The translations under genes were made by a program, and so were the position numbers. A DNA stretch of 64,000 bases from an uncultured Gammaproteobacteria bacterium (GTDB lineage: Bacteria; Patescibacteriota; Patescibacteriia; UBA9934; CAZDDW01). This document shows positions 3,302-13,529 of the stretch, one piece after another; the stretch's first letter is position 1; the number at the start of each line of letters is the position of its first letter. The stretch is from the NCBI GenBank assembly GCA_965231015.1, contig OZ246408.1, positions 793,908 through 857,907 of the forward strand, read 5' to 3'. Under the pieces are notes generated by a model, which worked only from the letters and a program-made list of their open reading frames with translations, had not been told where the DNA came from and did not search any database.

Positions 3302-3880
3302 ATGTCAGAAGAAATACAGAAGGTTCCAGAAGAAGCCTTAATGTCTAAACAAGAAGGCACGGAATCAACTCTACCGGAGGACCAAATCGAACGAGGAGGA
3401 GCAAATGATAATGTTCGGAAAATCAGTCCGGAAATGGTAGCCAAGGCTAAACAAGAAGGCTTGGCCGTCGAAAAAGGTAAAACCTCTGATCCCGTTTCCA
3501 AACGAGAAGCACTAAGTGGAGACAAGGACTGGTCCAAAGAAAACGTTGAAATCGGGGCTGATGTTCGGGCGGCGGCCATGGAACTGGCTGCGGAAAGCGA
3601 ATCCTCAGCTGATCTTCGAACCTCAACGATTGATGCCCTGATGAACCAGACAGTAACTTTTGAAGTTAGTGACGGGCTCGGTGCAAAGGGGAAAATACTA
3701 TCTCGTAACGAAGATGGTTCACAGGTAACAATCCGAGTAACCACCAAAAAATCCTGGATGCCGTGGAAAAAAGATGAGATTCAAGACCACACCGTTAGTC
3801 CAGATCAAATCCAGAGCTTTGATGAAATGATGAAACAGAATCAAGCAATTCAAGAAACGGGAACCCAGTCAACCGGCTAA
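3302..3880 (+). CDS. Hypothetical acidic protein (192 aa)
   Basis: Intact ORF; the ORF-track start at 3146 overlaps tRNA-Asp and is rejected, first ATG after the tRNA terminator used; followed by a terminator. Confidence 0.55.
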   Translation: MSEEIQKVPEEALMSKQEGTESTLPEDQIERGGANDNVRKISPEMVAKAKQEGLAVEKGKTSDPVSKREALSGDKDWSKENVEIGADVRAAAMELAAESESSADLRTSTIDALMNQTVTFEVSDGLGAKGKILSRNEDGSQVTIRVTTKKSWMPWKKDEIQDHTVSPDQIQSFDEMMKQNQAIQETGTQSTG

Positions 3881-3894
3881 GTTATCATGATAAC

Positions 3895-3925
3895 AAAACC
3901 CCGGGCATGTGCTCGGGGTTTTTGG
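3895..3925 (+). terminator. Rho-independent terminator (CCCCGGGC-atgt-GCTCGGGG-TTTTT)
   Basis: 8-bp stem with one G.U pair, T5 tract. Confidence 0.6.
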
Positions 3926-3978
3926 TTTATTTTTTCATTTTCACTTTCGTGCGAATATCCCGATGAGATCAATTTGTT

Positions 3979-4008
3979 ATACCCCTTATTCGTACGAATA
4001 AGGGGTAT
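3979..4008. repeat. Perfect 30-bp palindrome ATACCCCTTATTCGT/ACGAATAAGGGGTAT; a member of a recurring palindromic element family (see also 9966..10030, 33834..33870, 52155..52200)
   Basis: Exact reverse-complement symmetry read directly from the sequence; shares TACCCC/GGGGTA arms and a TTCGTAC/GAA core with the other copies. Confidence 0.8.
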
Positions 4009-10030: not shown

Positions 10031-10106
10031 GAATCATTTTCACTTTTCCATCTACGCTAAAGCTTCGGTGGACAGGCGTGCGAAAGACCCCATATAAAAC
10101 AAGAAA

Positions 10107-10137
10107 CCCGCCCGAGTAAAGACCCGGACGGGTTAGT
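10107..10137 (-). terminator. Imperfect hairpin (AACCCGcCCG...CCGGaCGGGTT) followed on the minus strand by a T-rich run; terminator for the doc operon
   Basis: Stem-loop plus T tract in minus orientation. Confidence 0.35.
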
Positions 10138-10175: not shown

Positions 10176-10592
10176 TTATAGCTCCACTAAATACTTACGC
10201 AAAAATTTCTCTATTCCGAGCACCACCTCATCTTTTAAAGTTGACGGGCTTGAGGCGACCCAAACAGCAAAATTGTAAAACTCAACCTCATCGACCTTGA
10301 TCCATTTTCCGTTTTTATACAAAAAGACCAAAAGTGTGGTCATGGCAAGACGTTTATTACCATTTTGAAACGGGTGATTCTTAACCATTAAATAAAATAA
10401 AATCGATGCCTTGCCAAGCAGACCCCGATAAACAACCCTTTTCTGAAAACGCTGAAATGGTACGGCCAAACATCCTTCGAGCACTCCGGCAAAACGAGTT
10501 CCAAAATCTGGAATGGGTTCATTGAAATTTAAAGCTTCCTTAGCAAAAGTATGTGCCACCTGTTCAACTTCAGCCAGGCTAATGGGTTTCAT
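10176..10592 (-). CDS. doc: Doc-family (Fic-fold) toxin
   Basis: Doc signature HPFQNGNKR (HxFx(D/N)GNKR); 138 aa; 1-nt gap to the upstream HTH gene. Confidence 0.85.
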   Translation of the reverse strand: MKPISLAEVEQVAHTFAKEALNFNEPIPDFGTRFAGVLEGCLAVPFQRFQKRVVYRGLLGKASILFYLMVKNHPFQNGNKRLAMTTLLVFLYKNGKWIKVDEVEFYNFAVWVASSPSTLKDEVVLGIEKFLRKYLVEL

Positions 10593-10593
10593 A

Positions 10594-10845
10594 TTACTCT
10601 GCCCCTAACATTTCAAGCGTCTGACCATATTCACGAACTGTCTTTCGCACGGCCTGTTCAATCATTTTCTTTTCTTTGGCACTTATCTCTTTTCCAACCA
10701 AAATTTTAACTTCACTCTCTGGAATCATAAAAGATCGACCAAGCCGCTTAGCCTTGATCTGTCCGCTGGTAATTTTTTTATTTACTGCAATCCGACTAAT
10801 CCCAAGTAAATCTGCCACTTCTTGAACCGAGTAATATTCCTTCAT
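10594..10845 (-). CDS. HTH (excisionase/MerR-like HTH_17-type) DNA-binding protein, putative antitoxin partner of Doc
   Basis: YYSVQEVADLLGISRIAVNKKITSGQIKAKRLG helix-turn-helix; ATG at 10845 preferred over the TTG at 10878. Confidence 0.7.
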   Translation of the reverse strand: MKEYYSVQEVADLLGISRIAVNKKITSGQIKAKRLGRSFMIPESEVKILVGKEISAKEKKMIEQAVRKTVREYGQTLEMLGAE

Positions 10846-10870
10846 ACTATTGTTAACTTTATTGTTCAAG

Positions 10871-10904
10871 GTTAACAATTGTTAACCTCTTTGTCAATAT
10901 TGAC
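10871..10904. promoter_or_regulatory. Two perfect palindromes in the doc-operon promoter region: GTTAACAATTGTTAAC (10871..10886) and GTCAATATTGAC (10893..10904); putative autoregulatory operators
   Basis: Exact dyad symmetry immediately upstream of the antitoxin start. Confidence 0.5.
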
Positions 10905-10932
10905 TAAATCTCCCGAATTTCGAGCATGTTTA
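10904..10932. repeat. 29-bp direct repeat (right copy) = authentic pyk 3' end
   Basis: See 10146..10174. Confidence 0.75.
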
Positions 10933-12292
10933 CTTTGCGGCCGGCGGGATGGCTCGCAATTACTACGACTTTGTCGCCTGCTCGAACAAGTTTAGCTAGT
11001 TTTAAAAGTCGAGTTGCCCGTTTGATCAAATCATCTGTCTCATAATCCATTTTAAGCGAATACGGCTGCACAGCCCAAGACAGGTTCAGCTGGTGGCGAA
11101 TAAATTCAGTTGAAGCAATAGCCACGATGGGGATTTCAGGGCGGAAGCGGCTGACCATGCGGGCAGTTGCTCCAGAGTTAGTGAGTGCCAGGATCATTTT
11201 TGTTTTCAAAGTTTGAACCATGAGTGAAGCAGCACCGCTCACCGAGTCCTTAACCATCTCGGCCAGCTGTGAGCTTTCTTCGAGCGTAACGTCATCATAG
11301 TGTGACGCTTCAGCTTCCTCGATTATTCGAGTCATGGTTTTTACAGCTTCCACCGGATACTTTCCCGTGGCAGTTTCACCAGAAAGCATAACCGCGTCCG
11401 TATGATCGATCACCGCGTTGGCTACGTCAGAAACTTCGGCGCGTGTTGGTCGTGGATTCCTGATCATTGAATCGAGCATTTGCGTGGCCACAATTACCGG
11501 CTTAGCTGCCGCACGGCACTTGTCAATGAACTCTTTTTGCAAAATCGGCACACCTTCAGCTGCGGTTTCGATTCCTAAGTCTCCTCGGGCTACCATGATC
11601 GCGTCTACTGACTTTAGAATCTCATCGAATCGATCCACGGCTTCGTGTTTTTCGATCTTGGCAATCACCTTGGGCAAGGGTTGATCATCCTTGGCGGCCG
11701 AGCGCAGAATACGCCGCATCTTTTTTACGTCCGCCGGATCTGTGACAAACGACAAGGCTACATAATGCAACTTTTGCTCAACACAAAACTTAGCATCTGA
11801 TTTATCCTTTTCTGTAATGGCCGAGATACTCAAATTGGTTTCCGGAAAGTTGATGCCTTTATGAGAGGTCAAAGTTCCCCCGACCACAACTTTAAATTTC
11901 AAAAATCCCTTTCGCCCACTCACAATCTCCCCTTCCATCAACCCATCGTCAAGCAAAATAGTATGACCCTTTTTCACATCCTTGTATAAATTTTCAAACG
12001 TCACCGGCACCTCAATGGTTTTTCCACGTTGTAGCTTGACTCCCTTTTCAGGCAACTCACCCACCCGAATCTTCGGACCCTGCAAGTCGCCAATAATTGC
12101 CACCGGATGCTTGAGCTCGCGAGCTACGGAGCGAATATTACGGATTAATTTTTTGTGATCAGCGTGTATACCATGCGAAAGATTAAGCCTGGCCACGTTC
12201 ATGCCGGCTCGGACCATTTGCTTGAGTTTAGATGCAGAATGACTGGCCGGACCAATCGTGCACACTATCTTTGTTCTTTTTTTACTGGGCAT
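10904..12292 (-). CDS. pyk: Pyruvate kinase
   Basis: Canonical PK motifs (IVCTIGPAS, MVARGDLGIE); ATG at 12292 (MPSKKRTKIV). Confidence 0.9.
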   Translation of the reverse strand: MPSKKRTKIVCTIGPASHSASKLKQMVRAGMNVARLNLSHGIHADHKKLIRNIRSVARELKHPVAIIGDLQGPKIRVGELPEKGVKLQRGKTIEVPVTFENLYKDVKKGHTILLDDGLMEGEIVSGRKGFLKFKVVVGGTLTSHKGINFPETNLSISAITEKDKSDAKFCVEQKLHYVALSFVTDPADVKKMRRILRSAAKDDQPLPKVIAKIEKHEAVDRFDEILKSVDAIMVARGDLGIETAAEGVPILQKEFIDKCRAAAKPVIVATQMLDSMIRNPRPTRAEVSDVANAVIDHTDAVMLSGETATGKYPVEAVKTMTRIIEEAEASHYDDVTLEESSQLAEMVKDSVSGAASLMVQTLKTKMILALTNSGATARMVSRFRPEIPIVAIASTEFIRHQLNLSWAVQPYSLKMDYETDDLIKRATRLLKLAKLVRAGDKVVVIASHPAGRKVNMLEIREI

Positions 12293-12293
12293 A

Positions 12294-13529
12294 TTAAAGA
12301 TCATCAGGGGTTACTTCTTCTAAGATGGCGGACATTAATATTTCCTCTCCGGCACGCATAACAAGAAGGCTCACAGTATCTCCCGGATCGAACTCATTAA
12401 TGATTTGAGCCAAAGTCTTGTCCGTGTTGACCGCCTGTCCGTTAATAGAAATTATAATATCTCCCTCAACTAACCCGGCGGCTTCAGCCGGTGAACCCGG
12501 CAGGATAGCCGGCTCATTTTCCCCAGTACCAGCCACCACGAGTGCTCCCTCGCTCACGGATAATCCGTTTTCTTCAGCCACAAACTCATCAATCATCAAA
12601 TAACGCACCCCAAGCCATGGCCGTACAATTCGACCGTGCTCCAACACATCACTCACCACTTCCTTGACCGAGTTGACCGGAATAGCAAAGCCGATTCCCT
12701 CACCCGAACCACTAATGGCGGTATTTATCCCGATTACTTCTCCAAGGAGATTAATGAGTGGCCCACCAGAGTTTCCTGGATTAATGGCCGCATCGGTTTG
12801 AATCGCTTGCTCAATTACTTGACTCGAACTAAAGTCACTAGCCAGCACCCGACGACCCAGCCCGGAAACCACCCCCTTGGTAACAGTATTCTGATATTCG
12901 GACAGAGTATTACCAATAGCAATCACGGTCTGACCAACGCGTAAATTGTCCGAGTCACCAAGAATAGCTACTGGAAAACTTTGGCCGTCTGTTTCCTCTT
13001 GATTAATCTGAAGCACGGCCAGATCCAAGAACAAATCTTCAGCCAGCACTGTAACTGCGTATTCCTCTCCGTCATTGGTTAAAATACTGTAAACCGCATC
13101 CGGGTCACTAACCACATGCTTATTGGTTATAAGAAGCCCTTCACTTGAGACAAACACAGCCGTACCACCTCCGACTTCAATAAGCTCACTCTCCAGAGAC
13201 TCTGTGTCCTCAGCTTCAAAATCATAAAAATAATAATCCGAGGCCTCAATAGTAAAAACCTGTTTGCGAACCACCACACTAACCACTGATGGTATGACTT
13301 GATTAACCACGGCAATAGTGGCTGTTTCTTCCTCTATGAGATCCACAATTTTGCGCTCTAAGGCCTCTTCTTCGCTCATGGGTAGAATATCCACTCCAAA
13401 TTGATCTGAAAGCTCCTGAACCAAATTTGAACGTTGAAACATTGAATAACCGGCCAAAGACCCAAAGAAAGCACCAATAACCGCTGAGATAGCAAGGACA
13501 AAAATTAGTAGTCCGGCTCGTTGAGTCAT
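12294..13529 (-). CDS. htrA: HtrA/DegP-family trypsin-like serine protease with a PDZ domain, N-terminal membrane anchor
   Basis: Catalytic GNSGGPL, His (TNKHVV), C-terminal PDZ. Confidence 0.9.
   Translation of the reverse strand: MTQRAGLLIFVLAISAVIGAFFGSLAGYSMFQRSNLVQELSDQFGVDILPMSEEEALERKIVDLIEEETATIAVVNQVIPSVVSVVVRKQVFTIEASDYYFYDFEAEDTESLESELIEVGGGTAVFVSSEGLLITNKHVVSDPDAVYSILTNDGEEYAVTVLAEDLFLDLAVLQINQEETDGQSFPVAILGDSDNLRVGQTVIAIGNTLSEYQNTVTKGVVSGLGRRVLASDFSSSQVIEQAIQTDAAINPGNSGGPLINLLGEVIGINTAISGSGEGIGFAIPVNSVKEVVSDVLEHGRIVRPWLGVRYLMIDEFVAEENGLSVSEGALVVAGTGENEPAILPGSPAEAAGLVEGDIIISINGQAVNTDKTLAQIINEFDPGDTVSLLVMRAGEEILMSAILEEVTPDDL

Follow-up and report, generated by a model that had tools for sequence, protein, structure and literature searches.

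The question raised by this locus is whether a death-on-curing (Doc) toxin gene that is preceded by the gene for a small excisionase-like DNA-binding protein still forms a toxin-antitoxin (TA) pair and, if so, how such a partner would both control the operon and restrain the toxin. The pair lies on the minus strand of a 64,000-nucleotide stretch of contig OZ246408.1 (positions 793,908 to 857,907; assembly GCA_965231015.1), which we call the window and whose coordinates are used throughout. Our analysis suggests that the two genes are likely to constitute a chromosomal type II TA cassette, consisting of a Doc toxin and a helix-turn-helix (HTH) antitoxin of the HTH_17 family that would act both as a repressor and, via its C-terminal helix, as the neutraliser of Doc. 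The genes are the following:

10594-10845, minus strand: gene for the proposed antitoxin/autorepressor, 83 residues (HTH_17 domain plus C-terminal helix), stop codon at 10594-10596
10176-10592, minus strand: gene for the Doc-family toxin, 138 residues, ATG at 10592, stop codon at 10178-10176

The antitoxin gene is the upstream one and is separated from doc by 1 nt, so that the locus has the two-gene operon with a small, coupled upstream antitoxin gene that is expected of a type II TA system.

The N-terminal part of the upstream protein is a DNA-binding domain of the excisionase type. Residues 4-47 match both Pfam HTH_17 (2.1e-9, 37.9 bits, cutoff 27) and TIGR01764 'excise' (excisionase family DNA-binding protein; 1.7e-10, 41.1 bits, cutoff 28.8), the latter being the best NCBIfam match of the protein, while residues 48-83 have no Pfam or NCBIfam match and PF02604, the Phd/YefM N-terminal fold, has no match anywhere in the 83 residues. 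The AlphaFold2 (AF2) model of the protein, built on a 12-sequence alignment (predicted local distance difference test, pLDDT, 77.5), has a winged helix made up of a strand (residues 4-6), two helices (7-14 and 18-26) and a hairpin (33-42), followed by a short helix (43-51) and then a single long helix (56-81). The best Foldseek matches of the model are Xis of mycobacteriophage Pukovnik (4j2n), BldC (6ama), RacA (5i44) and the MerR family, and Pukovnik Xis is the top match in the PDB by sequence as well as by fold. The sequence-only reading of this locus, which had described the Doc partner as an 83-residue protein with an excisionase/MerR-type HTH instead of a Phd/YefM antitoxin, was thus correct on both counts: the partner is an HTH_17 protein with a Xis/MerR-like winged helix and a C-terminal extension. 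Its two parts map as follows:

10708-10836, minus strand: winged-helix HTH_17/excisionase-like DNA-binding domain, antitoxin residues 4-46 (Pfam, NCBIfam, AF2 model, Foldseek)
10603-10680, minus strand: long C-terminal helix, antitoxin residues 56-81 (...IEQAVRKTVREYGQTLEMLG), the putative Doc-binding element (conservation, AF2 helix, modular occurrence)

The downstream protein is a Doc. It matches PF02661 (Fic) with 32 bits (cutoff 24), TIGR01550 (DOC_P1) with 47.8 bits (cutoff 38.65) and PHROG 577, 'Doc-like toxin', at 1.6e-16, and it is a single-domain protein whose 138 residues fall within the ~125-140 residues of solved Doc folds. Its nearest solved relatives by sequence are the Enterococcus faecalis Doc (9VZC; E = 1.4e-4) and P1 Doc (3K33), and the top Foldseek matches of its AF2 model (pLDDT 75.3) are P1 Doc structures 3k33_A and 3dd7_A (probability 1.00, template-modelling score ~0.5). 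The catalytic motif of Doc differs from that of AMPylating Fic proteins in that a lysine replaces the second glycine. The published form of the Doc motif is HxFx(D/N)(A/G)NKR (PMC13034048), and the window protein contains it:

10350-10376, minus strand: Doc catalytic motif HPFQNGNKR, Doc residues 73-81 (sequence and conservation)

Among 50 homologues H73, P74, F75, N77, G78, N79, K80 and R81 are invariant and Q76 is conserved in at least 90%. The subfamily to which this Doc belongs comprises 5,819 clusters at 90% identity (E <= 1e-3) and is named by NCBI 'type II toxin-antitoxin system death-on-curing family toxin'.

Evidence that the two proteins function together comes from the conservation of their pairing. 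A word-indexed protein search recovered no more than 12 relatives of the HTH protein; pattern scans using their alignment yielded at least 223 confirmed loci in the contigs of one bacterial or archaeal genome per species and more than 509 in metagenomes. These loci come from Patescibacteria, Omnitrophota, Planctomycetota, Elusimicrobiota, Nitrospirota, Aminicenantes and other phyla, and their hosts belong almost entirely to uncultured lineages, including the streamlined Patescibacteria. Plasmid, phage and viral collections contained only marginal matches, limited to the HTH part, or none, which means that the cassette does not correspond to any known module of plasmids or phages. We examined pairing in 160 fetched loci plus the copy on the window's own contig (L001), 152 of which have at least 430 nt of sequence downstream of the HTH gene. 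A Doc homologue lies directly downstream on the same strand in 151 of these 152, and the two genes mostly overlap or nearly touch, the commonest gaps being -1, -4 and +1. In the sole locus without doc (L005, 3962-4891), the HTH-tail reading frame continues into unrelated enzyme-like sequence to give an open reading frame (ORF) of 309 residues, as if doc had been lost through a deletion or fusion. The homology search for similar HTH-Doc pairs that had been put forward as a check therefore came out in favour of the pairing, and the full-length HTH protein is not one that is widely found without Doc, an observation that had been named as counting against its being the antitoxin. The closest relative of the window cassette (L172) occupies the same site at the pyruvate kinase gene (pyk) and is 86-87% identical; in it, doc and the gene that follows are separated by an additional ORF (139 residues, function unknown; 3548-3967).

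The region between pyk and the antitoxin ATG (10845), which lies 58 nt 3' of the pyk stop codon, contains the candidate regulatory sites:

10904-12304, minus strand: pyruvate kinase gene (pyk), ending with TAG at 10906-10904
10893-10904, unstranded: 12-bp perfect palindrome GTCAATATTGAC (exact, at chance frequency, overlapping the pyk stop codon)
10892-10897, minus strand: predicted -35 hexamer TTGACA (family-conserved promoter form)
10869-10888, unstranded: 20-bp perfect palindrome AGGTTAACAATTGTTAACCT, with GTTAAC site 1 (10881-10886) and site 2 (10871-10876) 10 bp apart
10869-10877, minus strand: predicted extended -10, TGT-TAACCT (TGTTAACCT), inside GTTAAC site 2
10852-10857, unstranded: third GTTAAC site, 19 bp past site 2 and 7 nt before the start codon

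The sequence-only reading had proposed two exact dyads as operators, GTTAACAATTGTTAAC and GTCAATATTGAC. Both are indeed exact, and the first (10871-10886, 16 bp) turned out to be the core of the 20-bp palindrome at 10869-10888, to be conserved across phyla and to overlap the promoter. The window contains two perfect palindromes with arms of at least 10 where shuffled sequence predicts 0.03, and 25 with arms of at least 6 where shuffles give 16 +/- 3.8; the first palindrome is therefore statistically remarkable and the second is not. We rejected the second as an operator. Neither GTCAATATTGAC nor any GTCAA-N0-4-TTGAC occurs in any of the 136 other unique upstream regions; even L172, in which the 20-bp palindrome and the -35 are both preserved, lacks it. 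The first G of GTCAATATTGAC is the final base of the pyk stop codon. Because it is absent from the other cassettes, L172 included, we consider it to be the -35 box TTGACA plus a chance inverted copy. The third GTTAAC site had been overlooked in the earlier reading.

The operator grammar became clear when, over 137 unique loci, the 150-nt regions preceding the antitoxin gene were compared with the rest of these loci (774 kb). The density of GTTAAC is 19.8 per kb in the upstream regions and 0.096 per kb in the flanks, a roughly 200-fold enrichment; at least two copies are found in 129 of the 137 loci and at least three in 104. The exact arrangement GTTAAC-N4-GTTAAC, with ATAT, AATT and ATAG as its commonest central spacers, is kept in 87 of the 137 and never occurs elsewhere in the flanks. 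Successive hexamers are almost exclusively 19, 10 or 29 bp apart, and the main layouts are 19-10-19 (43 loci), 19-10 (15 loci) and 10-19 (15 loci, including the window). Promoters of the form TTGACA-N17-TGT-TAACCT were found in 62 of the 137 loci and in only one of 137 shuffled ones; TGT precedes the -10 in 56 of these 62, and the commonest -10 is TAACCT. As one GTTAAC site is itself the extended -10 in these 62 loci, the operator overlaps the -10. In the window, site 1 falls in the 17-nt spacer, site 2 coincides with the -10 and site 3 lies between the predicted start point and the ATG, a layout shared with loci L003 and L091. A promoter called by a scanner, TTAACA-18-TAAAGT, was set aside in favour of the family-conserved TTGACA-17-TGT-TAACCT. 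A longer database gene call of 94 residues, starting at TTG 10878, was also discarded, as this TTG is within the palindrome and upstream of the predicted -10, and homologues begin only ~2 residues before ATG 10845.

The 20-bp palindrome would thus be the main operator, and the antitoxin presumably represses its own promoter via the GTTAAC array, which its HTH_17 domain would bind. Small winged helices of Xis, BldC, RacA and the MerR family typically fill several adjacent sites. Xis, BldC and RacA, the best structural matches of the antitoxin N-domain, bind closely spaced repeats cooperatively; unlike the window protein, they are not antitoxins, have no conserved tail and are uncoupled from any toxin gene. 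The unusually clear GTTAAC grammar, with its 19-10-19 spacing over an extended -10, makes this family well suited to the study of multi-site operator recognition by small Xis/MerR-like winged helices.

The second half of the proposed mechanism concerns the C-terminal tail. Few parts of the antitoxin are as well conserved as the segment AVRKTVREYGQTLEMLG (family consensus AVKKTVKEYGETLKLLG), which equals the region of the recognition helix in this respect. A search with a profile of the tail alone recovered 333 cluster representatives among 1.84 billion proteins, and these fall into three groups: HTH-tail proteins of ~85 residues, many tail-only proteins of 45-60 residues, and a few in which the tail is joined to other N-termini or is itself N-terminal. 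One of the fusions, P0218 (L183, 2001-2554), has 112 residues with an unrelated N-terminus followed by the tail, and a Doc homologue follows it with an overlapping start (E = 1e-34). Another, P0204 (L177, 1405-2200; 217 residues, tail C-terminal), is followed by a remnant of a Doc C-terminus and preceded by a canonical Fic protein of 300 residues. The GTTAAC array is absent upstream of tail genes that lack HTH_17, including the tail-Doc pair of L183, so that the motif goes with the HTH_17 domain; among the indirect evidence available, this is the best for recognition of GTTAAC by that domain.

The idea that Doc normally pairs with Phd/YefM antitoxins, from which the sequence-only reading had started, is too narrow. 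Phd, AbrB, Xre and YhfG have all been reported as partners of Fic/Doc proteins (PMC2701414), as have PanA (PMC10440598) and an AbrB-like 'Phd' (PMC13034048), and MerR-like winged helices have been reported as antitoxins of PIN toxins (Makarova et al. 2009; PMC2701414). With several classes of Doc antitoxin already known, a non-Phd partner is therefore unsurprising in itself. An HTH_17/excisionase-type partner of Doc is not among the published AbrB-, Xre- and YhfG-Fic/Doc and PIN-truncated-MerR pairs (PMC2701414), and our literature searches turned up no account of an HTH_17/excisionase-type Doc antitoxin, the tail or the GTTAAC operator array; the few mentions of an HTH_17 'antitoxin' all involve partners other than Doc. 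The cassette is a real but only moderately surprising variant of a known TA system, with an antitoxin type that is undescribed. It adds a large uncharacterised antitoxin class to the Doc family, one that joins an HTH_17 winged helix to a distinctive conserved helix.

The characterised systems provide a model for what the tail might do. In the two solved Doc complexes, with P1 Phd and with the E. faecalis AbrB-like 'Phd', a C-terminal helix of ~20-30 residues, carried by antitoxins that are otherwise unrelated, inserts into Doc (PMC13034048), and the PanA(Phd-C)-Doc complex, which was predicted and tested by truncation, has the same C-terminal helix arrangement (PMC10440598). P1 Phd-Doc (3K33, 3DD7) shares with the window cassette a small Doc kinase toxin with the HxFx(D/N)(A/G)NKR motif, a translationally coupled upstream antitoxin whose DNA-binding part is N-terminal and whose helical part is C-terminal, and palindromic operators in its own promoter. 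It differs in that the N-terminal domain of the window antitoxin is an HTH_17 winged helix and not the Phd/YefM fold, that the tail has no detectable similarity to that of Phd, that the operator of the window family consists of 3-4 GTTAAC hexamers arrayed with 10/19-bp spacing, and that the two Doc proteins are only ~20% identical. The E. faecalis system (9VZC; PMC13034048) contains the solved Doc closest in sequence to ours, and its 'Phd', an AbrB-like domain followed by a bent C-terminal helix of ~28 residues, both neutralises Doc and recognises a palindrome; in contrast to the window antitoxin, its fold is a beta-sheet AbrB-like one, its operator is single, and the tail sequences are unrelated. 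In PanA(Phd-C)-Doc of Corynebacterium doosanense, from the NetFlax study (PMC10440598), the Doc-neutralising C-terminal module is portable onto unrelated N-termini, and the tail of the window family likewise behaves as a portable module, although the N-terminal domain of PanA is Panacea and not a DNA-binding HTH, and its sequences are unrelated to the window antitoxin. With its portable tail, the family allows a clean test of the model in which antitoxins evolve as a linear neutralising module plus an exchangeable DNA-binding domain.

In the mechanism that we propose, Doc, as a Fic-fold kinase of the Doc type, would by homology stop translation by phosphorylating EF-Tu. The antitoxin winged helix would bind the GTTAAC array, occupying the two hexamers of the 20-bp palindrome and the third one 19 bp downstream. 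This array reaches from the spacer across the extended -10 into the short leader of the cassette promoter and, since it covers the promoter, binding of the antitoxin would be predicted to repress the operon. The C-terminal helix of ~26 residues (56-81) would dock on Doc and hold it inactive, as modelled on the C-terminal helices of P1 Phd, the E. faecalis AbrB-like 'Phd' and PanA(Phd-C). In this scheme GTCAATATTGAC would contribute nothing beyond the -35 box. Neutralisation of Doc by the tail, which the sequence-only reading had already suggested and which conservation, the predicted helix and analogy favour, is, in our judgement, the most probable role for this helix, and we hold it with reasonable, though not full, confidence.

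It is possible, if somewhat unlikely, that the cassette uses these same parts as a phage-defence module, with Doc being released upon infection to cause abortive infection. PDC-S23, a defence candidate in PADLOC (proteins of 312-331 residues), has a C-terminal stretch of ~110 residues that the Doc domain matches at 8e-16, and the domain resembles other candidates as well, and the cassette of L175/L176 is near a Fic protein of 318 residues and a MerR/HTH_17 protein. The similarity to PDC-S23 is at the level of the domain only and suggests that related Doc domains also occur fused to longer N-terminal regions, whereas in the window the neighbours of the cassette are housekeeping genes, for pyruvate kinase and an HtrA-like protease, and no defence-island context was found there.

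Another explanation, which we regard as unlikely, is that the HTH protein only represses doc transcription, that its tail is a dimerisation or oligomerisation helix as in MerR, and that Doc is controlled by its expression or by another factor. In MerR-type proteins the long helix that follows the winged helix is a dimerisation coiled coil, and by analogy the tail might merely dimerise the repressor. The Foldseek matches include MerR regulators with just such a helix, along with BldC, RacA and Xis, which bind as multimers, and a multi-site operator of fixed spacing calls for protein-protein contacts. Several further observations weigh against neutralisation by the tail, or against parts of the scheme around it. 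When the tail profile was compared with P1 Phd by hhalign, the probability was 0.1%, i.e. no similarity, and none was found to any PDB chain either; homology to Phd residues ~52-73 is thus not seen, and the tail is only an analogous predicted helix of similar length. The tail-only proteins P0032, P0036, P0029 and P0027 (47-53 residues) have no Doc within ~2.5 kb, and none was found in the fetched flanks of the fusions P0304 and P0177; a role of the tail that is independent of Doc is therefore possible. The AF2 model of Doc is of low confidence at residues 23-50 (pLDDT <50), the promoter was deduced from consensus and conservation rather than from transcript mapping, and no clear Shine-Dalgarno sequence was seen before the antitoxin ATG. 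Mutual information between antitoxin and Doc (average product-corrected; 124 pairs, 83 effective sequences) placed the tail in 18 of the 50 top pairs, compared to 22 expected, but both partners are too conserved for this to speak for or against contact. Against a pure repressor, however, stands the pairing of the overlapping genes in 151 of 152 loci, a tight coupling of the kind that marks a toxin and the antidote acting directly on it. A tail joined to a non-HTH N-terminus, moreover, still precedes Doc in the absence of the GTTAAC array, where an oligomerisation helix would be pointless, and all Doc antitoxins characterised to date neutralise via a C-terminal helix (PMC10440598, PMC13034048).

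We retain the TA cassette with a neutralising tail as the likeliest reading, to which two side observations can be added. The Doc stretch of low model confidence (residues 23-50, positions 10443-10526; NEPIPDF.TRF...LE.CLA.PFQ) is among the best-conserved parts of the Doc subfamily, and it may fold only upon binding of the partner. The tail-only proteins (...KKTIKEYGETLKLLGRE; L162-L171 and L179-L180) have neither an HTH domain nor a GTTAAC array, and a release-factor gene immediately precedes those for P0032 and P0036; these mini-proteins may be orphan 'anti-addiction' antitoxins or have some other role.

The surroundings of the cassette raise the further question of how it came to lie behind pyk. 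It is bracketed by a direct repeat and closed by a terminator:

10904-10935, unstranded: upstream copy of a 32-nt direct repeat, consisting of the functional pyk 3' end with its stop codon
10146-10177, unstranded: downstream copy of the 32-nt direct repeat, a remnant pyk 3' end that begins at the doc stop codon and is followed by the terminator
10105-10134, minus strand: strong intrinsic terminator 3' of doc, with a 13-bp stem, 8 G-C pairs and a T-tract

The two copies are 91% identical (alignment score 24.5, compared to a maximum of 12.5 in shuffles) and both encode NMLEIREI*, the differences in the coding part being synonymous. The inserted unit thus consists of promoter, antitoxin and doc only (10178-10903, 726 bp), without a terminator of its own, and the terminator at 10105-10134 is probably the original one of pyk, now closing the cassette transcript. 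Flanking repeats also occur elsewhere in the family: in L175 the repeat is 37 nt of the 5' end of a HAD-hydrolase gene, repeats of 50-120 nt were found in L028, L075, L072, L150, L143 and L024, and shorter ones of 25-35 nt in L135, L004, L106 and L069, the repeat units of these last ten loci measuring 817-960 bp from start to start. Overall, flanking repeats of 25-120 nt were present in 15 of 113 cassettes and in 6 of 624 control placements of the same geometry in the same loci (Fisher p = 6e-9). The apparent repeat of L052 was discounted, being two different tRNA-Ser genes and not a duplication, and L172 has no flanking repeat. The insertion targets vary among loci. One possibility is that the repeats arose by single-crossover (Campbell-type) integration of a circular copy carrying a piece of the target.

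Taken further, the promoter-HTH-Doc unit of ~0.75-0.95 kb could be pictured as a minimal mobile cassette without a recombinase gene, inserting in chromosomal genes or gene ends with a target duplication of 25-120 bp and bringing along a copy that replaces the interrupted gene end, as at pyk; the Xis-like antitoxin would double as a DNA-architectural or directionality factor, and the tail-only proteins would be anti-addiction decoys that neutralise incoming Doc. We consider this full scenario doubtful. Target-site duplications may nevertheless reveal how such cassettes move among small genomes, and the mobility of the cassette and the orphan tails are the observations likeliest to reward further work. 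That the protein is primarily an excisionase-family directionality or architectural factor for such a unit, with Doc as its addiction function, is very improbable in spite of the TIGR01764 match, the phage Xis fold, the synonymous pyk duplication and the excess of flanking repeats over controls, because neither an integrase neighbour nor action at an attachment (att) site is apparent: no integrase was called beside the cassette in the window, L172 or L175/L176, targets that differ by locus leave no common att site, the GTTAAC sites are on the promoter and not at the cassette ends, and the family is absent from the viral, phage and plasmid collections.

Elsewhere in the window, the longest perfect palindrome is one of 30 bp (ATACCCCTTATTCGTACGAATAAGGGGTAT, 3979-4008). 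Two convergent ORFs flank it, and it probably forms a terminator-like hairpin acting in both directions.

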